64,000 nucleotides of DNA. It comes from an uncultured delta proteobacterium. Lineage in GTDB: Bacteria; Desulfobacterota; Binatia; Binatales; Binataceae. The position numbers and the translations under genes are program-made. Shown in pieces: positions 3,222 to 20,035 of this stretch. The stretch is from positions 200,999-264,998 of the forward strand of contig CAWHTV010000004.1 of assembly GCA_963832395.1 (NCBI GenBank), written 5' to 3'. Within the stretch, counting starts at the first letter, position 1. The number at the start of each line of letters is the position of its first letter. The notes under the pieces were generated by a model. The model was not told where the DNA came from. It did not search any database and saw nothing but the letters and a program-made list of their open reading frames with translations.

Positions 3222-4380
3222 ATGCCGGAGCGGCAAACTCAAATATCGGCGCAGAACCCGGGACAGGCCTCGGCACAAACTTCAGGAGCGGACGACCTCG
3301 CCGCCGAATACGGCGAGGTGCGCGAGGAGGAGCGGCTCGACTGGCCGCAAGCTTCAGGCCTACCTCCGCGAGCACGAGGTGCCCGGCGCGGGCTCCGCGA
3401 TGGAGGTCAAGCAGTTTCGCGGCGGCAGTTCCAACCTGACCTACCTGCTGCGCTTCGCCGACGGCCATCAGTGGGTCGTGCGGCGGCCGCCGTTCGGACC
3501 GCTGCCGCCCTCGGCGCACGACATGGCGCGCGAGTACCGGGTGCTGTCGCGGCTATGGGAGGGATTTCCGGCGGCGCCGCGCGCGATCGTGCTGTGCGAG
3601 GATCCGGCGATCATCGGCGCGCCGTTCTTCGTGATGGAGCGGCGGGAAGGCGTGGTAATCAAAAATCGCCATCCGCTGCCGCCCGAGCTCGACCAGAAGC
3701 CCGAGACCTTCCGCCGCATCTCGGAAAGCTTGATCGATACGCTCGCCGACCTCCACGCGGCCGACTACGAAAAGATCGGCCTGGGCGGCCTCGGCCGTCC
3801 CGAGGGCTTTTTGCAGCGCCAGATCACGGGATGGATGGGGCGGTGGGAGAAGGCCAAGACGCGCGAAGTGCCGCTGATGGAAAAGCTCGGCACGTGGTTC
3901 CTGGAGCACATGCCGGCGGCGCAAAAGCCCACCCTGCTGCACAACGACTTTTACCTGCACAACGTGATGCTGGCGGCGGGCGATTCGGGCAAGGTGGTCG
4001 GCGTGTTCGACTGGGAGATGTCGACTCTGGGCGATCCGATGATCGATCTGGGGCTGACGATCGGTTACTGGCGCCAGGCCGACGACCCGCCCGAGCTGAT
4101 CGCGCTCTCGCAGGGCTATGCGCATACCACGACGCCCGGCTTCCTCAGCCGCGACGAGTTGCTCCAGCGTTACGCCGGGCGCAGCGGCCGCGACGTGAGC
4201 ATGGCCGACTACTATCGGGCGTGGGCCAACTGGAAGACCGCCACGGTGGTCGAGCAGATTTACGTCCGCTATGTGCGCGGGCAGACCAGCGACCCGCGCT
4301 TTGCCAACATGGGCGAGTGGGCGCCGGTGCTGGCGCGGCAGGCGGCGCGAGTCGTTGCCAAATTCGGCTTTAGGGAGTAA
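3222..4380 (+). CDS. Phosphotransferase (APH/choline-kinase fold, ACAD10/11-associated type; frame break near 3347)
   Basis: N-terminus in frame 3 (GEVREEERLDWP), body in frame 1 (KQFRGGSSNLTYLL, catalytic LLHNDFYLHNVM, VFDWEMSTLGDP). Sits directly downstream of the ACAD gene, as is common for this pair. Confidence 0.8.
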
Positions 4381-12420: not shown

Positions 12421-13734
12421 ATGGGCGAGATTCCAGCTCTTGACCTGACGCCGGAACGCGCAGCGGGACCGGAGCCGGCGATCCCGACCAGTGCCGTGGT
12501 CGCCACGGTGCTGGGCAACGCGCTGGAGTTTTACGATTTCACCACCTATGCCTTCTTTGCGGTGATGATCGGGCACGCGTTCTTTCCAGCCCAGGATCCA
12601 TTCATCAGCCTACTGCTGTCCGTTGCCGCGTTCGGTGTCGGCTTCATCACCCGTCCCCTGGGAGGCATCGTGATCGGCGCCTACGCCGACCGCGCCGGAC
12701 GAAGGCCCGCGATGATGCTGAGCATCGGATTGATGGCGGTGGGCATGGTGGTGCTGGCGGCGACACCGTCCTACGCCACCATCGGGCTCGCGGCGCCGAT
12801 TCTGGTGATCCTGGCGCGTTTGATCCAAGGCTTCGCGCTGGGCGGCGAGGTCGGACCGTCCACTTCTTATCTGCTGGAAGCGGCGCCTGCGGGAAAACGC
12901 GGGCAATACGGAGCCTGGCAGATAGCCAGCCAGGGCGCGGCCTCGGCGCTCGCGGGATCGCTTGGAGTGCTGTTGTCGTGGTTGCTCGACGCCAACGACA
13001 TGCAATCCTGGGGCTGGCGCATCCCCTTCATCGTCGGCGTCGCCATCGTGCCGGTGGGGCTGATCATGCGCGGCCAGTTGCAGGAGACCGTGGACCTCCG
13101 AGCGAGGACCACCCATTCGAGCGCGAGCCACGTGCTCTCCGCCCTGCTCCAGCATCACCTCCGCCCGCTGGTGCTGGCCCTGATGCTCATCACGAGCGGT
13201 ACGATCGCCACCTATATCGGCGTCTACATGACGACCTACGCGCTCAGCACGCTGCACATGGCAACCGGCGCGTCGATGGGAGCCACGGTCGTGGTGGGTC
13301 TGTGCCTGCTGGTGTTCGGTTTGATCGGTGGATGGCTCTCTGACCGTGTCGGACGCAAACCGGTCTACCTCGTATCGAAACTGGCGCTGACCGCGGTGGC
13401 CTATCCGGCCTTCGTGGTGATCAACCGGCATCACACTCTTACCGCGCTGCTGCTGATGGCGGGACTGATGTCCGCGCTGAACGCGCTTGGCGGCGTCGTG
13501 CTGGTGGTGATTCCTGAGCTCTTTCCGAAATCCGTGCGCAGCGCCGGCCTGTCGACTGTCTATGCGATCGCGGTCACCGTGTTCGGCGGCACCACGCAGG
13601 TCGTGGTGGCCTGGTTGATCCACGCTACGGGCGATCCCCTCTCGCCCGCCTGGTACCTGATAGGGACCAGCGCGATCGGTGTCGTGGCGATTTTGATGAT
13701 CGCGGAAACGAAGGACGCCACGCTGGCGGACTGA
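12421..13734 (+). CDS. MFS transporter (metabolite:H+ symporter-like)
   Basis: Intact 437 aa. LGNALEFYDFTTYAFFA N-terminal signature and GAYADRAGRRP loop; about 12 hydrophobic segments. Confidence 0.8.
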   Translation: MGEIPALDLTPERAAGPEPAIPTSAVVATVLGNALEFYDFTTYAFFAVMIGHAFFPAQDPFISLLLSVAAFGVGFITRPLGGIVIGAYADRAGRRPAMMLSIGLMAVGMVVLAATPSYATIGLAAPILVILARLIQGFALGGEVGPSTSYLLEAAPAGKRGQYGAWQIASQGAASALAGSLGVLLSWLLDANDMQSWGWRIPFIVGVAIVPVGLIMRGQLQETVDLRARTTHSSASHVLSALLQHHLRPLVLALMLITSGTIATYIGVYMTTYALSTLHMATGASMGATVVVGLCLLVFGLIGGWLSDRVGRKPVYLVSKLALTAVAYPAFVVINRHHTLTALLLMAGLMSALNALGGVVLVVIPELFPKSVRSAGLSTVYAIAVTVFGGTTQVVVAWLIHATGDPLSPAWYLIGTSAIGVVAILMIAETKDATLAD

Positions 13735-13819
13735 GCGTTCGCCGCTCGCTTCATTGGCCGTTGCGCAGGGGCTCTGCTACGCTCCGCCAGACAATTTGAT
13801 CTGAGGAGGGCCGGGTCCC

Positions 13820-14257
13820 ATGCCGCAGATGATGAATGACGCCGCTTTCAGGGCATACGCGATCGCCTGCTCGATCCTGGTCTTCAAAATGTTGGCCGCC
13901 GGGATCCTCACTGCGTCGACGCGCTCGCGGGTCAAGCAGTTTCTCAATCCGGAGGACGCCGGACTGTTAGGCGGCGCCGGCGTCATGCAGGAGCATCCCG
14001 ACGTGGAGCGGATGCTCCGGCTGCATCGCAACGACCTCGAGAACATCCTGCCCTTCTTCACGGTGGGGCTGATCTTCGTGTTGATGGGCGTCTCGGCTTT
14101 CGGCGCCCAGGTGTATTTCTACACTTTCACCGGTGCGCGAATCGCCCACACCATCACTTACGTAGCGAAGCTGCAGCCGTGGAGAACCGTGGCCTACGTG
14201 GTCGGAGTCGTCTGCATGGTCGGGATGCTGGTGCAGATTCTAATGGCCGCCCTCTGA
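13820..14257 (+). CDS. MAPEG family membrane protein (microsomal glutathione S-transferase-like)
   Basis: 145 aa with four hydrophobic helices; RAHRNDLENI-like motif (LRLHRNDLENILPF). Confidence 0.65.
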   Translation: MPQMMNDAAFRAYAIACSILVFKMLAAGILTASTRSRVKQFLNPEDAGLLGGAGVMQEHPDVERMLRLHRNDLENILPFFTVGLIFVLMGVSAFGAQVYFYTFTGARIAHTITYVAKLQPWRTVAYVVGVVCMVGMLVQILMAAL

Positions 14258-14438
14258 ATCATTGCGAGCGGGAAGCCCGGTTTTCGGACCGCCTAACGGC
14301 TTTGCCGTTCAGGTTAGGGCCGAAGGCAGTGCCCGGCTCGAAAACCCGCTGTAACCCCGAAAGCGGGCGGAGCAGGGTGGTCTGATCGGCTCCCGCAGGG
14401 GGGCGTCGCGCTCGACGCAGGACAAGCACAAACGCTCG

Positions 14439-14466
14439 TTGACAATACTTGTCCATGTTTTACAAT
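14439..14466 (+). promoter_or_regulatory. Sigma70-type promoter of the RHH-PIN operon
   Basis: TTGACA (14439-14444), 16-nt spacer, TACAAT (14461-14466). GACAA/TTGTC half-sites at 14421, 14441 and 14449 overlap it. Confidence 0.6.
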
Positions 14467-14722
14467 GACGACTATGCGTACCGCCAAGACCATATCCATC
14501 ACTCTGCCGCCCGACCTGCTGGTGAAGGCGCAGGAGCTAGCCGAGCGCGAGCACCGCACCATGAGTGAATTATTCCGCGAGGCGCTGCGCTGCTACATGC
14601 AAACCGATGCGGGATGGAAGACTCTGTTGTTGCGCACACGGACCACCGGCCAAGCCCTCGGGATTAAGAGCGAGGCGGATGTAGAGCGCCGGTCCGATGA
14701 ATATCGCCATGACAAGCGATGA
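14465..14722 (+). CDS. Ribbon-helix-helix (CopG-type) antitoxin
   Basis: KTISITLPPDLLVKAQELAEREHRTMSELFREALR gives the RHH beta-strand plus two helices. Stop overlaps the PIN start (ATGA 14719-14722). The true start may be ATG 14474, because ATG 14465 lies inside the -10 box. Confidence 0.8.
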   Translation: MTTMRTAKTISITLPPDLLVKAQELAEREHRTMSELFREALRCYMQTDAGWKTLLLRTRTTGQALGIKSEADVERRSDEYRHDKR

Positions 14723-15129
14723 CCAGGGTGGTGGCCGACACCAACATTTACGTATCGGCCATGATGTTCGCCGGGCTGCCTGGTTCCTTGCTTGACCTTG
14801 GATTGCTGCAGGCTTTCACGCTGGTTATCTCACCGCCGCTGCTGGATGAACTCGAAGACAAGTTGCGAGTCAAATTCGGCGTAACGGCCGAAGATGCCGC
14901 GACCATCCGCGCCAAGCTGGAAGGGGTAGCTGATGTGGTCGCCCCGGATTTCGTTCTCCACGTGGTCAAGGACGACCCTGATGATAACCGCGTGCTCGAA
15001 TGCGCGGTGGCTGGCAAGGCCGACTACATCGTCAGTGGCGATCGCCATTTGCTGAAACTCAAGGCGCATGCCGGCATACCGATTCTAACGGCCCGGCAAT
15101 TTCTCGATGCGGTTGCTCCGCCCAGTTGA
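14719..15129 (+). CDS. PIN-domain toxin (type II TA)
   Basis: 136 aa. VVADTNIYVS, LDELEDKL, DDNRVLECA and SGDRHLL supply the conserved acidic PIN residues. Translationally coupled to the RHH gene. Confidence 0.8.
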   Translation: MTRVVADTNIYVSAMMFAGLPGSLLDLGLLQAFTLVISPPLLDELEDKLRVKFGVTAEDAATIRAKLEGVADVVAPDFVLHVVKDDPDDNRVLECAVAGKADYIVSGDRHLLKLKAHAGIPILTARQFLDAVAPPS

Positions 15130-15608
15130 CCGCCGAGAACGCGGGGTAGCAGCGCGATCACCTACGGGACAGGAAATCGTTAGTTTATCGACAGAAGGGC
15201 TTCGGCGATCCAAGAAGACGACCTGCTGCGAGCGACTAAAATCGACGCGGCACGGTCAGGCAAGCGCGACTATCAGGTAGTCGAGAAACGCTGCGCGCTT
15301 ATCTTGGCCTCAATCTCCTGGAACGTGTCCGTGCACGCTCCGGCCCAAAAAAAACAGGTGCTGGCTCTTCACCGAGTCGCCAGCCTGAATCTTATCGGTG
15401 AAAAAAACAGGGGGGGCGCTTGGATGTGGATAACGCGCCGTGGATATCGTTGACATGGAATCGTCTGAAGGGTTCGATCGATATTGAATTATTTTCAGGA
15501 CGGTGAACGCCCGACGATACGCAACTATCGCTGAATATCGAAGCAGTCGCTTACTGGAACCGCGTTGCGTTCGAAATCCCCGACACCATCGGATACGACG
15601 ACTACCGG

Positions 15609-16991
15609 ATGTTCTCCCGGGGCATTGCGGAAGATCTGACCGCCCGTGCGCCGGATCGTCTGCCCGGCGCGCTGACCATCTTCCAGTATCCGAATTTCAA
15701 ACCCGACAATCCCGACAACTTGCGGCCAATGGCCGTCGTGAGCGTGCCCGACCTCGCGCTGTTAAGGGCCGATGCCGGATTGATCATCAAAATCACCGAT
15801 CCGCTGCTTTCCGATAACGTCTGCTCATACCGCCTGAACTCGTCCCTCATCCCTGGCGCGGCGTGGGGCTTTGACCGCCGAGGTTCCTGGAAGAAGCGGT
15901 TCCTCGCGGGCGGGATGCAGATCCTCGATGAAGCCGAATTCCCGTTCATGTGCAGGACGGACATCCGCAAGTATTATCCCTCGATCCAGCTTGATCTCCT
16001 GCAGGAAGCGCTGCTGATGAACGGCTGCGATCCCCAGGCTGTGGGTCGCATTTTTGCGGTTTTGAAATTCTGGCAGCAGTGCTACGGCCTCGGCGGATTG
16101 CCGATAGGCCCGGAGGCCTGCGCCGTTCTCAGCAACTTCTTCCTGCGCCCAATCGATGAGCTGATGGACGTGGCCGGCGCGCAGTACAAAAGGTACGGCG
16201 ACGATATGCTGATATTCAGCCGAGACCGACCCATGGGCGAGGCTGTCGCCGAATTCCTGGACGATGAATTGCGCCAACTGCAACTCACAAGGTCCGTAGA
16301 AAAAACAGAGTTCTTCGACGACCCCGCGGCCGCCAGGTCCAACCTGCAAGACCACGAGATCAATTACATGGAGGACGCCGCGGACTTCGACCAGGGCATC
16401 GCCTTATACACCGTCAAGCGCGGCTTCCACCGCCTGCTCTATACGGCTCCCCAGGACATCAAGCCGTCACGCTTCCGGTGGGTGCTGGGGTTCCTCAAGA
16501 GGCGTCGTGACCCCGATGGCTGCTTTGATCTCTCCCGGCGCGCGGACCTGATGAACGTCGACCCGAAGGCCGCGACGAATTATCTGGCCGTCGGCAGCCG
16601 GGATCAGCGCGTTCTGATCAATTGCATGCAGCGCTTGGCGCAGCCGCGGGAAGAGAGGTTCGACGGTCTCAACCTCCACCAGCTGCGCCTGATGGCGCAG
16701 ACGAAGACAGGTAAGGACGAAGCCAAGGAGTTCGAACGAATCGTCTCCGATAAATCCACGCCGTGGCCCACGCGGAGCTGGGCATGGGCGGCCTTTGCGC
16801 ACGCCGATGGAACCAAACCATCCCGTCTCATGGAAGCTGCCCGACACGAGGCCAACCAGAATATTCGCAGGGCGATCGTCGCCACCTTGAAGCGCCATTC
16901 CGATTCGTCGCAATGCCAAACTTTTCTGCGCGATGAAGCCGAACGCTCCCCCACGAACAAATACACCGTCGAGTGGGTAAAAGCCGCGTAG
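15609..16991 (+). CDS. Reverse transcriptase, stand-alone Abi/UG (defence-associated) type with C-terminal helical-repeat domain
   Basis: RT motifs LRPMAVVSVPDLALLRA, CRTDIRKYYPSI, GLPIGPEACAVLSNFFL, YKRYGDDMLIF (YGDD at 16194-16205) and LQLTRSVEKTEFF. About 210 aa of non-polymerase helical tail follow. The N-terminus may extend upstream (see findings). Confidence 0.85.
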   Translation: MFSRGIAEDLTARAPDRLPGALTIFQYPNFKPDNPDNLRPMAVVSVPDLALLRADAGLIIKITDPLLSDNVCSYRLNSSLIPGAAWGFDRRGSWKKRFLAGGMQILDEAEFPFMCRTDIRKYYPSIQLDLLQEALLMNGCDPQAVGRIFAVLKFWQQCYGLGGLPIGPEACAVLSNFFLRPIDELMDVAGAQYKRYGDDMLIFSRDRPMGEAVAEFLDDELRQLQLTRSVEKTEFFDDPAAARSNLQDHEINYMEDAADFDQGIALYTVKRGFHRLLYTAPQDIKPSRFRWVLGFLKRRRDPDGCFDLSRRADLMNVDPKAATNYLAVGSRDQRVLINCMQRLAQPREERFDGLNLHQLRLMAQTKTGKDEAKEFERIVSDKSTPWPTRSWAWAAFAHADGTKPSRLMEAARHEANQNIRRAIVATLKRHSDSSQCQTFLRDEAERSPTNKYTVEWVKAA

Positions 16992-17151
16992 CTCTGATGG
17001 CGGAAATCCGGGTTCAATAGTCAAGCCGAGTGACCCGACTCCCGGCGATCCCAGGCACGCCCGGTCCGACCAATGAACCATGGCACCCGTTGCGGCCTCT
17101 GGTGACGGGGCGCGGCCAGTCGTGATAATCTTCAATCACACGAGGTTGATC

Positions 17152-19641
17152 ATGGCGGACTCCACCAACGGCACTTCCAACGGTTCTGCGCAGAAAAGCT
17201 TTCGAGTCATCGGCACCCGGCCCATCCGGCACGACGGAATCGAAAAGGTCACCGGGCGAGCCAAATATGGCGCCGACTACTCATTCCCGGGAATGCTCTA
17301 CGGCAAGGTCCTGCGCAGCCCGCATGCGCACGCCCGGCTAATCGCGATTCGTACGGAAAAGGCGGCCGCGCTGCCCGGCGTGAAGGCGATAATCACCGGC
17401 GACGACCTTCCCGACATTCCCGGCACCACTGCGATGATGGGCGAACTCGTGGTCAACACGCATTACCTGTCGCTCAACGTGATGGCGCGGGGCAAGGTGC
17501 TGTACGACGGTCATGCGGTCGCCGCCGTCGCCGCCACCAGTCCGCATATCGCCGAGGAGGCTCTGCGCCTCATCGAGGTCGACTACGAACCGCTGCCTCC
17601 GGTGATGACCGCCGAGGCCGCGATGAAGCCGGATGCGCCGATCCTGCTGCCCGAGATTCGCCAGAAATTCATCGCCGGGCGCACTGATCCCGGATCGCCC
17701 GAGGGCCCCGACCAGCCGACCAACATCGCCGCGCACATCCAGTTCCAGCGCGGCGACCTCGAGGCCGGCTTTCGCGAGGCCGACTACGTCGTCGAACGCG
17801 AGTTCAAAACCGCCACCGTCCATCAGGGCTATATCGAGCCGCAGAACGCGGTCGCGCTCTACAGCTCAGACGGCCACGCAACCATCTACTGCTCGACCCA
17901 GGGCACCTTCAACGTGCGCACGCTCACAGCCACCGTGCTCAAAATGACCGAGGGCCAAATCAAAGTGGTGCCGGCGGAAATCGGTGGCGGCTTCGGCGGC
18001 AAAACCACCATCTATCTCGAACCGCTGGCCCTGTTGCTCGCGCAAAAGAGCGGACGGCCGGTCAAGATGACGATGAGCCGCGCCGAGGTGCTGCGCGCGA
18101 GCGGTCCGACTTCGGGAACCTGGATCAAGGGTAAGATGGGCGCGACGCGCGACGGCAAAATCACCGCCGCGCAGTTCTGGTTGGCTTACGAGGCGGGGGC
18201 TTATCCCGGCTCGCCGTTCGCGCCGGGCGCGATGTGCTGCACCGGCCCCTACAACATTCCCAACCTGCTTCTCGACTCGTACGACGTGGTGGTCAACCGG
18301 CCCAAGGTCGCGGCCTATCGCGCACCGGGATCGCCAAGCTCGGCGTTCGCCTGCGAATCGCTGCTCGACGAACTCGCGCTGCGCTGCGGAATGGATCCGC
18401 TCGAGATGCGTATCCTCAACGGCGCCCACGAGGGCACTCCGCAACCCGCCGGCCCACCATACAAACGCATCGGTTTCATCGAAACCTGCGAGGCGCTGAA
18501 GAACAGCGAGTATTACCGCTCGCCCCTGGTGGGCCCCAATCGCGGGCGCGGCGTCGCCGCCGGCTTCTGGTTCAACGGTGGCCTGCAATCGGCGGCGGCC
18601 GTCAACCTGCACAACGACGGCACGCTCAGCGTCGTGACCGGCTCGGTCGATATCGGCGGATCGCGCGCCGCGATGGCGATGGTGGCGGCGGAGGTGCTGG
18701 GCGTCGAGGCCGAAGACGTGCGCCCGATCGTCGCCGATACCGACTCGATCGGCCATACCGACGTGACCGGCGGCAGTCGTATCACGCTCGCCACCGGGAT
18801 GGCGGTCTACGAGGCGGCCGAAGACGTGGTGCGCCAGCTCAAGGAGCGCGCCGCCAAGCTGTGGGAGAAGAAACCCGAAGAAGTCGAGTTCAACAACGGG
18901 CGCCTGAGCGCGATCGGCAACGGCGTCAAGCCGATGACGATCAAGGAAATCACGCCGCGCCTTGCCCGCACCGGCGGCCCCATCACCGGCCGCGCGACGC
19001 TCAATGCCGGCGCGGTCGGCGCGGTCGGCAACGCGTTCGCGCTCACCTGCGTCGACGTCGAAGTCGATCCCGATACCGGCAAGGTGAAGATTCTGCGCTG
19101 CGCCGTCGCCCAGGATGTTGGCCGCGCTATCCATCCGTCCTACGTCGAAGGGCAATTGCAGGGCGCCACGGCGCAGGGGATCGGATGGGCGCTCAACGAG
19201 GAATACGTCTACGACGAACGCGGCATCATGCGTAACACCGGGCTGCTGGACTACCGGATGCCGACCTGCCTGGATCTGCCGATGATCGAGACGATTATCG
19301 TCGAAGTCCCCAACCCCAGCCATCCATTAGGCGTGCGCGGCGTGGGCGAAGTCTCGATCGTCTCGCCGATGGCGGCGGTCGCAAACGCCATCTATCGCGC
19401 CGTCGGGGTGCGGATGACCGAGTTGCCGATGTCACCGCCGAAACTGCTCAAGGCGATGCTGCAGCATCGGCGGTCCGGCGAGGAAGTTGCATACCGCGGC
19501 CGCCGACTGATACGAATCGCACGCCCAGATTCTGCTCTTAAAAGCGCTGTCTCGGACTCGATGGCTGGAGGCGCTGGAGCTCGTGCGCTGAAGCAGTCAA
19601 AAGCGAGTGTTGGTCAGTTTAGGCTGGAATTGCGGCAATAA
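17152..19641 (+). CDS. Xanthine dehydrogenase family molybdopterin-binding large subunit, copy 2 (orphan paralogue)
   Basis: ATG 17152 follows GAGG. Collinear with copy 1 over its whole length (FRVIGTRPIRHDG, GGGFGGK, AAYRAPG, ADTDSIGHTDVTGGSR). No frame break in the body. The 3' end is uncertain: an alternative stop TGA 19508-19510 sits in the +1 frame. Confidence 0.85.
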   Translation: MADSTNGTSNGSAQKSFRVIGTRPIRHDGIEKVTGRAKYGADYSFPGMLYGKVLRSPHAHARLIAIRTEKAAALPGVKAIITGDDLPDIPGTTAMMGELVVNTHYLSLNVMARGKVLYDGHAVAAVAATSPHIAEEALRLIEVDYEPLPPVMTAEAAMKPDAPILLPEIRQKFIAGRTDPGSPEGPDQPTNIAAHIQFQRGDLEAGFREADYVVEREFKTATVHQGYIEPQNAVALYSSDGHATIYCSTQGTFNVRTLTATVLKMTEGQIKVVPAEIGGGFGGKTTIYLEPLALLLAQKSGRPVKMTMSRAEVLRASGPTSGTWIKGKMGATRDGKITAAQFWLAYEAGAYPGSPFAPGAMCCTGPYNIPNLLLDSYDVVVNRPKVAAYRAPGSPSSAFACESLLDELALRCGMDPLEMRILNGAHEGTPQPAGPPYKRIGFIETCEALKNSEYYRSPLVGPNRGRGVAAGFWFNGGLQSAAAVNLHNDGTLSVVTGSVDIGGSRAAMAMVAAEVLGVEAEDVRPIVADTDSIGHTDVTGGSRITLATGMAVYEAAEDVVRQLKERAAKLWEKKPEEVEFNNGRLSAIGNGVKPMTIKEITPRLARTGGPITGRATLNAGAVGAVGNAFALTCVDVEVDPDTGKVKILRCAVAQDVGRAIHPSYVEGQLQGATAQGIGWALNEEYVYDERGIMRNTGLLDYRMPTCLDLPMIETIIVEVPNPSHPLGVRGVGEVSIVSPMAAVANAIYRAVGVRMTELPMSPPKLLKAMLQHRRSGEEVAYRGRRLIRIARPDSALKSAVSDSMAGGAGARALKQSKASVGQFRLELRQ

Positions 19642-19686
19642 GGACGTAATTTGAAGATTTTGCGCTTCATTTCATCATAGAACCTA

Positions 19687-19714
19687 TTGCAACTAATTAT
19701 AACTGGCGTACAAT
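19687..19714 (+). promoter_or_regulatory. Candidate sigma70 promoter upstream of the MoxR/VWA genes
   Basis: TTGCAA, 16-nt spacer, TACAAT, in an AT-rich patch about 320 nt upstream of ATG 20036. Confidence 0.3.
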
Positions 19715-20035
19715 GAGTCTCGCTGGCCGGGGTTTGCCCCCCCTTTTCCCGGTTGGCTGGGGCCGGACGGCGCGAGCCGTTCGGCCTCGATTAAATTCTC
19801 TCGCGCTGCCGCGACTCGCGTCTCGCAGATAGGCCGTGATACGCTACGCGTTTGCCGGCGACAAGCCCGCAATTCAAATCAAATTCGGTGGACCGCGGAA
19901 TTCGCGCGACTGAACGTGCAAGGCGATTGACGGTGGGCAATTGGCTGTTCGCAATTGACTGCGCGGTCGAATGACCGCAATGCTCAGCTTCTCAACCGGG
20001 CGAAGTGAACGTCACGCAGGCAACATCCAAACAAG

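Follow-up and report, generated by a model that had tools for sequence, protein, structure and literature searches.

Genes and features of the locus

The DNA analyzed here (the window) is a 64,000-nt stretch of a contig from an uncultured delta proteobacterium of the family Binataceae (CAWHTV010000004.1, positions 200,999 to 264,998), and the subject of this report is a reverse transcriptase (RT) gene within it, together with the 479-bp spacer (overall G+C 55%) between this gene and a PIN toxin gene. The genes at the locus encode an RHH_1 antitoxin (14465–14722), a PIN_3 toxin (14719–15129), the RT, annotated at 15609–16991, and a molybdopterin oxidoreductase (17080–19641). A first-pass annotation, made from the sequence alone, had described long open frames without start codons in the spacer, and its description was accurate on recheck. 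Frame 1 is open at 15184–15453, with 89 sense codons and no ATG. The RT frame is open at 15402–15608 except for a TGA at 15504–15506, the peptide read from TTG 15420 is exactly as given, and the A8 (15347–15354), A7 (15401–15407) and G7 (15410–15416) tracts are correctly placed.

We consider it fairly probable that the spacer is a mosaic of a dead antitoxin gene, filler, and an RT cassette that carries its own control region, followed by a conserved stop codon and an RT N-terminus likely starting at ACG 15507. The features that delimit the RT gene are:

15504–15506, plus strand: in-frame stop codon TGA, the 5' bound of the RT reading frame
15507–15608, plus strand: unannotated RT N-terminus of 34 codons, TPDDTQLSLNIEAVAYWNRVAFEIPDTIGYDDYR
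15507–16991, plus strand: revised RT gene, 494 codons and a stop

The RT reading frame extends upstream of the annotated start

Approximately 55 loci encoding relatives of the RT were collected (loci and proteins are cited below by L and P numbers), including a clade of 18 relatives with 70–92% protein identity to the RT in the window (the window clade). Comparison of these sequences indicates that the 34 codons at 15507–15608 belong to the RT and are under purifying selection. Over the 27 codons preceding 15609, the ratio of nonsynonymous to synonymous changes (pN/pS) among 15 clade sequences was 0.33 in the RT frame, compared with 1.08 and 0.68 in the other two frames and 0.38–0.47 in the downstream part of the RT. 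Changes at third positions are synonymous as far as the codon that follows the stop, and the sole indel is 3 nt long. The translation of 15507–15608 matches the N-terminal AVAxWNRxxFE(I/V)PDxIGFxDY of P0003, P0008, P0027, P0034, P0035, P0037, P0040 and P0041, and is also homologous to the N-termini of distant representatives of the family. An AlphaFold2 model of the 494-residue protein (predicted local distance difference test 87.8, predicted template modeling score 0.86) contains helices at residues 4–21 and 31–46; the extension supplies helix 1 and the first part of helix 2, as well as a conserved FE(I/V)PD-x-IG(F/Y)-x-DY motif.

The first-pass annotation had suggested an RT that is longer at its N-terminus and broken by an indel and a nonsense or base error. 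The RT is indeed longer, by the 34 codons upstream of ATG 15609, but the gene is not broken. The comparison across loci that it had recommended revealed codon-like conservation at 15507–15608, and no covariation in the block upstream of the stop. It had also allowed for relatives that begin at the equivalent of Met 15609 and share nothing upstream of it; instead, they share protein-level conservation there.

It is unlikely that the RT of this sub-clade is translated from ATG 15609, with the 34 upstream codons an untranslated evolutionary leftover. Such a start would be in keeping with the presence of the ATG in the window, L051 and L053, and with the pN/pS of the extension relative to L053, which is 0.5–0.6 (over very few sites), compared with 0.26–0.28 for the rest of the RT. 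However, at least 12 other clade members have CTC, TTT, ATC or GTC at this position. Over the clade as a whole, constraint on the extension is no weaker than on the rest of the protein, and between the window and L051 its pN/pS is 0.17. The upstream frame is open and indel-free, no Shine–Dalgarno motif lies ahead of 15609, and a start there would drop W...FE(I/V)PD, the most conserved N-terminal motif of the family.

A conserved stop codon bounds the RT reading frame

The comparative data identify TGA 15504 as a conserved boundary, and not as the nonsense or base error that it had been taken for. The position is occupied by TGA or TAA in 17 of the 18 window-clade loci, and is identical in L055, an independent assembly of the locus. 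The remaining locus, L020, has TGC, with a TGA three codons earlier. A second in-frame TGA lies three codons upstream in 13 of the 18 loci (TTT TGA GGA CGG TGA ACG). Protein homology and codon-like evolution stop exactly at TGA 15504, and no homology to RT N-termini was found upstream of 15507. Selenocysteine insertion or read-through at this TGA was ruled out by the second upstream stop, the lack of a start codon between the two stops, and the end of homology at the stop.

Apart from the TGC of L020, a sense codon at this position was encountered in P0082 (Trp, presumably encoded by TGG; only the protein was available). This 250-aa protein is 76% identical to the RT and gains a 70-codon upstream extension through the Trp, while its RT is frameshifted after approximately residue 225. 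It looks like a decaying copy.

Putative control region of the RT cassette

Upstream of the stop, the segment 15416–15503 is conserved but shows no 3-nt periodicity, and stops occur in all frames among the relatives. From its motifs we infer that it comprises the putative promoter, operator and short leader of the cassette:

15416–15503, plus strand: conserved 5' end of the RT cassette, non-coding; putative control region with a promoter and short leader
15425–15433, minus strand: DnaA-box-like 9-mer, TTATCCACA on the minus strand (TGTGGATAA on the plus strand), 16 nt upstream of TTGACA
15450–15455, plus strand: putative −35 hexamer TTGACA, invariant in 14 of 14 aligned relatives, with variable flanks
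15473–15478, plus strand: candidate −10 hexamer TTCGAT, after a 17-nt spacer from TTGACA
15497–15500, plus strand: Shine–Dalgarno-like AGGA, 6 nt before ACG 15507 and invariant in 14 of 14 relatives

The DnaA-box-like sequence TGTGGATAA is the sole perfect match to the DnaA-box consensus in the window, and is conserved as TGTNGATAAYGC, with one copy in each of 13 related loci. It could be an operator that ties RT expression to DnaA or replication status, or the site of another regulator. The candidate −10 hexamer retains T...AT in 13 of 14 aligned relatives, the exception being L053, with TCGAA in those columns. The block also contains a U-rich stretch and an invariant AGGA-N-GGTG. A survey of Shine–Dalgarno usage over the genes of the window was too noisy to be informative, the starts used being those of the longest open reading frames (ORFs).

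By eye, the control block has no evident similarity to the upstream regions of the two more distant clades, with 48% and 40% identity to the RT. Outside the window clade, clear −10 boxes are found 40–90 nt before the coding starts (TGCTATAAT in L009, TGATATAAT in L010 and TATAAT in L034).

Two side observations concern leaders. The leader at 15490–15502 in the window, and its equivalent in L051, reads (C/T)TGAA-N5-TTCAGGA, and could pair into a short hairpin, sequestering the AGGA; the complementarity is missing from relatives with TTTTGAGGA. The 40%-identity clade (L017, L018, L021, L033, L034 and L044) has a conserved block of its own approximately 60–30 nt before the coding start, in which a TATAAT-like box precedes a GC-rich hairpin, CUCGGCUCGCCCC-UUCG-GGGGUUGCUCCUGAG, located where the mRNA is predicted to begin.

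ACG 15507 as a candidate start codon

With the exception of L020, which has a TTG, all clade members lack ATG, GTG and TTG between the stop and FE(I/V)PD. In 16 of the 18 clade loci, the stop is followed by ACG as the first sense codon. An exhaustive HMMER search yielded 1371 family representatives, and by our count some 44 of the top 150 carry the N-terminal segment behind a canonical start. Relative to the Thr encoded by ACG 15507 (T1), Met1 of the segment-bearing homologs clusters 0–7 residues upstream (our tally of protein start minus query start), and in direct alignments Met1 of P0148 and P0178 coincides with T1. ACG is thus one transition away from ATG, at the position of the ATG of the family. 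In the 48%-identity clade, L009–L011 have an ACG two codons before a conserved Phe; other start-less members have ATT (L044) or CTG (L016). In E. coli, ACG supports detectable initiation with an N-terminal Met (bioRxiv 10.1101/063800).

On this comparative evidence, ACG 15507 is most likely the non-canonical start codon of the RT. Translation would initiate inefficiently at ACG, 6 nt past the AGGA, and the weak initiation may limit the amount of a potentially toxic polymerase.

Beyond the two points given above for ATG 15609, several observations weigh against this reading. The strong conservation of the stop is unexplained if ACG is the start. The ACG is replaced by CCG in L019 and by ACA in L020, and the latter has gained a TTG nine codons downstream. 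AGGA is a Shine–Dalgarno match of only 4 nt. For the promoter, a strict-threshold scan of 15000–15700 for sigma-70 promoters and terminators found nothing, and TTCGAT lacks the consensus A at position 2.

We also regard it as improbable that the extension is translated from a start other than ACG. Initiation at the near-cognate CTG 15531 or at ATC 15537 would agree with the conservation of these codons, CTG being present in 16 of 18 loci, with TTG in L020, a locus that lacks ACG, and ATC in 18 of 18. Nevertheless, the codons between ACG and CTG vary synonymously, contain a 3-nt indel and align with homologs, and therefore appear to be translated, and no Shine–Dalgarno motif precedes CTG or ATC. 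A second route would start at GTG 15503 in the −1 frame and require an immediate +1 shift. This GTG is kept in all loci but L053 and L054, which have an ATG one codon upstream in the same frame, and the AGGA 2–3 nt before it gives an arrangement similar to that at the RF2 +1 frameshift site. However, any TGA that follows G, T or A creates an overlapping NTG, making the −1-frame start largely automatic, and the initiator tRNA cannot re-pair on UGA. For ribosomes coming from further upstream, termination at the TGA followed by re-initiation would make sense of the conserved stop, but in most relatives an ORF that could bring them there in the RT frame lacks a start codon. As for editing of ACG to AUG, we know of no C-to-U mRNA editing of start codons in bacteria.

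For several clades, we also weighed a programmed +1 or −1 frameshift out of a leader ORF, and rejected it: no consistent slippery site or 0-frame stop was found, and the −1-frame NTG is a by-product of the TGA.

A different pattern was observed in every clade other than the window clade (L009–L013, L016–L018, L021, L024–L026, L033, L044, L047 and L048), where a GGAGG-like motif lies 6–9 nt before an invariant TTC. This TTC encodes the Phe of an F-D/N-x-x-E-L motif and sits where a start codon would be expected; in roughly half of these loci, the interval from the upstream stop to the Phe has no ATG, GTG or TTG. TTC itself was rejected as a start codon, since a canonical Met occurs a few residues ahead of it in many distant relatives, and it is probably just the codon of the conserved Phe.

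The E. coli infC gene starts with AUU, and in some genes start codons other than AUG, GUG and UUG are used to limit expression. The RT gene resembles genes of this type in having a near-cognate codon at the ancestral ATG position, a Shine–Dalgarno-like motif, and a product that is plausibly harmful when abundant. It differs from them in that the use of ACG is proposed from comparative data only, and in that the codon is missing from two clade members. To our knowledge, no natural bacterial start codon ACG has been established; if confirmed, this would be a rare natural and conserved case, in a gene for which very low expression makes sense. A further idea, which we consider a long shot, is that exchange of ATG for a conserved ACG, enclosed by the stop on its 5' side, ties the output of the polymerase to relaxed start-codon fidelity (for example when initiation factor IF3 or host translation is perturbed in phage infection), with the start codon acting as an infection sensor or expression throttle. 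The ACG of L009–L011, the ATT of L044 and the CTG of L016 point to a similar tendency in related clades. What keeps the locus of interest is a clade of putative defense polymerases in which a conserved stop precedes a start that is probably a conserved ACG and, at the least, non-canonical.

These features have consequences for annotation. Gene callers truncate this RT family: the ORF in the window begins 34 codons late, and many database homologs, among them P0010, P0011, P0016, P0078, P0088 and P0105, open at internal Met or Val codons that correspond to residues 24, 75 or 148 of the 494-residue protein. Gene callers probably cut these entries short for lack of a canonical start. Cloning or modeling from such annotations would lose helix 1 and the FE(I/V)PD-IG-DY motif.

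The RT is related to Class 1 UG/Abi polymerases

The RT matches Pfam RVT_1 (4.3e-09). Its top PADLOC profiles, for which there is no curated cut-off, were RT_UG23 (3.3e-37, 126 bits), UG32 (1.8e-28), UG21 (2.8e-28) and Drt8 (1.5e-27). These are Class 1 groups; among Class 2 groups (UG2, UG28 and UG17), to none of which the RT belongs, UG17 matched with only 2.2e-11. In the catalytic RYGDD motif, R195, D198 and D199 are invariant in 26 homologs. Residues 273–493 of the AlphaFold2 model are all helical, and one homolog, P0029, carries a HEAT_2 annotation. In a full-length Foldseek search, DRT6 ranked best by template modeling (TM) score (0.66), followed by DRT4/UG15, AbiA, AbiK and Abi-P2. DRT9 ranked first by E-value, but with a TM score of 0.44 and a root-mean-square deviation of 18.7.

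On the basis of its profile matches and modeled fold, we assign the RT as a stand-alone Class 1 UG/Abi polymerase, and not as a confirmed UG23 system. UG23 systems have NUDIX or SLATT partners (PMC9226505); neither was found beside the RT, whose neighbors in the window are the RHH/PIN pair and the molybdopterin oxidoreductase. With Class 1 UG/Abi RTs it shares a palm with YGDD, a C-terminal all-helical repeat domain in place of the thumb, and variable, island-like contexts, and with DRT4 and DRT6 a stand-alone single polypeptide of approximately 490 aa. It is distinguished from the named UG groups by the modest similarity (3.3e-37 to UG23 and 1.8e-28 to UG32), and by the lack of a canonical start and the conserved stop abutting the first codon in the window clade.

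Characterized Class 1 UG/Abi members work through abortive infection and synthesize single-stranded DNA that is untemplated and protein-primed (PMC9508834, PMC12783706). A recent summary describes synthesis as untemplated in Class 1 and as templated by ncRNA (non-coding RNA) in Class 2 (PMC13174585). By analogy with AbiK, Abi-P2, DRT4 and DRT6, the RT may make protein-primed, untemplated single-stranded DNA. Since the characterized Class 1 members synthesize without a template, no RNA partner would be expected. The priming Tyr is Tyr61 in Abi-P2 and Tyr44 in AbiK (PMC9508834). The RT has a conserved Tyr in an F-x-Y-P-(N/K) motif, Y61 of the 494-aa protein, which apparently resembles these in its position after helix 2, a resemblance only.

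No RNA partner is apparent in the upstream block

The first-pass annotation had offered an ncRNA partner of the DRT2 or DRT9 type as its second explanation of the spacer. We consider it very unlikely that the conserved block at approximately 15416–15503, perhaps together with the homopolymers, is an ncRNA template or scaffold for the RT, as in DRT2, DRT9 and DRT10. Like these Class 2 systems, in which the templating ncRNA lies upstream, the RT gene has a conserved non-coding block of approximately 90 nt ahead of it on its own strand, and the two travel together. The homopolymer tracts of the window recall the homopolymer products of DRT9, and the hairpin of the window and L051 can sequester AGGA.

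However, the enzyme has a Class 1 fold, and the block is short, unstructured and promoter-like. RNAalifold analysis of 14 aligned 5' blocks, on both strands and in several sub-windows, yielded no more than a consensus helix of 6 bp that pairs two invariant segments, with no covariation or compensatory pairs; the minimum free energy of the consensus was −3.7 to −4.8 kcal/mol, and shuffle z-scores of single sequences were −0.08 to −1.7. A search of 13000–20000 against Rfam with E up to 1 gave no match. The conserved positions (TTGACA, the 9-mer box and AGGA) correspond to DNA and translation signals, and the upstream regions of the 48%- and 40%-identity clades, which the block does not evidently resemble, show −10 boxes. 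No conserved template tract, such as a homopolymer, was found in the RT upstream regions of the relatives; the homopolymers in the window are strain-specific and lie outside the cassette.

An antitoxin relic and filler separate the PIN gene from the RT cassette

The upstream part of the spacer contains two further features:

15187–15343, plus strand: antitoxin pseudogene, the relic of a 73-codon Arc/MetJ-type (RH3, PF22180) ribbon-helix-helix antitoxin gene
15344–15415, no strand: non-conserved junction or filler of approximately 70 nt, carrying A8, A7 and G7

The frame-1 translation matched 23 small Arc/MetJ-type (RH3, PF22180) proteins of 73 aa, with a top E-value of 9.7e-7 in a search of 5.8 billion proteins, and is 55% identical to P0047 over 51 residues (BLASTP). 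By tblastn, antitoxin residues 1–34 correspond to 15187–15288 in frame 1 (68–72% identity, depending on the query protein), and residues 34–52 to 15285–15341 in frame 3 (79–84% identity). At the DNA level, 15214–15341 is 78% identical to an intact homolog, with one 1-nt gap near 15284, where a deletion moves the reading from frame 1 to frame 3. ATC 15187 now occupies the ancestral start position. The gene is cut off after codon 52, its last 21 codons being gone, and DNA homology ends at 15343, directly before A8.

Intact homologs are followed by a PIN_3 toxin gene in 4 of the 4 places shown, and no cognate PIN toxin for the relic was detectable downstream in the window. The segment 15187–15343 is therefore the decayed 5' two-thirds of a second toxin–antitoxin module that has lost its PIN partner. 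The relic retains approximately 70–80% protein identity to residues 1–52 of the antitoxin of type II RH3/Arc-MetJ and PIN_3 modules (at 15187–15341), but differs from these modules in lacking the start, the last 21 codons and the toxin gene, and in being frameshifted. It is unrelated to the intact RHH_1/PIN_3 pair at 14465–15129.

This relic explains why frame 1 is start-less and mildly coding-like, and the frame is unrelated to the RT. The third-position G+C content of frame 1, noted earlier as elevated, is 62.2%, which does exceed the 55% G+C of the spacer but is under that of nearby real genes (68–82%). An open frame of at least 90 codons arose in some frame in 67% of first-order Markov simulations of 479 nt with the same composition, and so the length of frame 1 alone is within chance. 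More generally, a start-less frame beside a mobile defense gene can be what is left of an unrelated gene.

The homopolymer cluster is unusual, with three of the seven runs of at least 7 nt in the window falling within 70 nt. L055 derives from a slightly different strain (98.35% identity over the aligned 3.7 kb), and its spacer is identical base for base; hence, neither the TGA nor the tract lengths are assembly errors. The filler could be aligned only to L051, the closest relative, over approximately 40 nt, where the tracts are A4 and G4. A8, A7 and G7 are absent from all relatives, the more distant of which have GAATCAACAGGTCAGCGCG, or unrelated or unalignable sequence. The RNA folding z-score of the filler was +0.38. 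Comparison of these sequences indicates that the homopolymers are real but lineage-specific; they are not part of the conserved cassette and mark its junction with the antitoxin relic. A cluster of homopolymers need not have a function when it sits at a recombination junction.

That the RT gene is damaged or mis-assembled, with the TGA an error and an under-called base at A7 or G7 that would join frame 1 to the RT frame, is extremely unlikely: homopolymers are error-prone and both frames overlap at A7/G7, but L055 has the identical spacer despite differing elsewhere, the stop is kept in 17 of 18 relatives from different metagenomes, frame 1 encodes the relic of an unrelated gene ending at 15343, and the relatives have no homopolymers and have stops in all frames across 15416–15503.

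In L051 (92% identical), a 76-nt insertion relative to the window lies at approximately 3725–3800, just upstream of the DnaA-box-like site and the common block. It contains a strong hairpin (GGCCGAGC-TTGC-TCGGCC, then ATTT) and a palindrome, TTGATAAGTCGACGAATCAA. The segment appears to have been lost from the window.

The RT cassette occurs in variable genomic contexts

The cassette spans approximately 15416–17011 (1.6 kb). DNA homology with the 18 relatives reaches approximately 17011 on the right, while its left limit varies by relative between 15416 and 15497, falling at 15416–15425 in ten of them. The neighboring genes differ: L051 has a CoA-transferase and an acyl-CoA dehydrogenase, L053 has a mer operon and a different PIN/MazE pair, and no neighbor gene family is common to the window-clade loci. 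The differing neighbors, none of them shared, indicate that the RT and approximately 190 nt upstream of it are self-contained and move as a unit from one context to another. This cassette does not include the PIN/RHH pair.

No direct or inverted repeats flanking the cassette were found beyond 11–21-mers at chance level, and a scan of viral contigs revealed no relatives. A tRNA-Ser(CGA) gene lies approximately 230 nt upstream of the cassette in L001 (3481–3571) and L006 (2484–2574), an arrangement typical of island insertion. Variable neighbors, adjoining toxin–antitoxin modules, and the proximity of tRNA-Ser in these two loci form the context for a putative role in defense.

In the 48%-identity clade, two conserved ORFs lie downstream of the RT on the same strand (L012 4368–5459, L013 3055–3810, and L022 5209–5964), immediately so in L012. 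These are possible partner genes, absent from the window clade.

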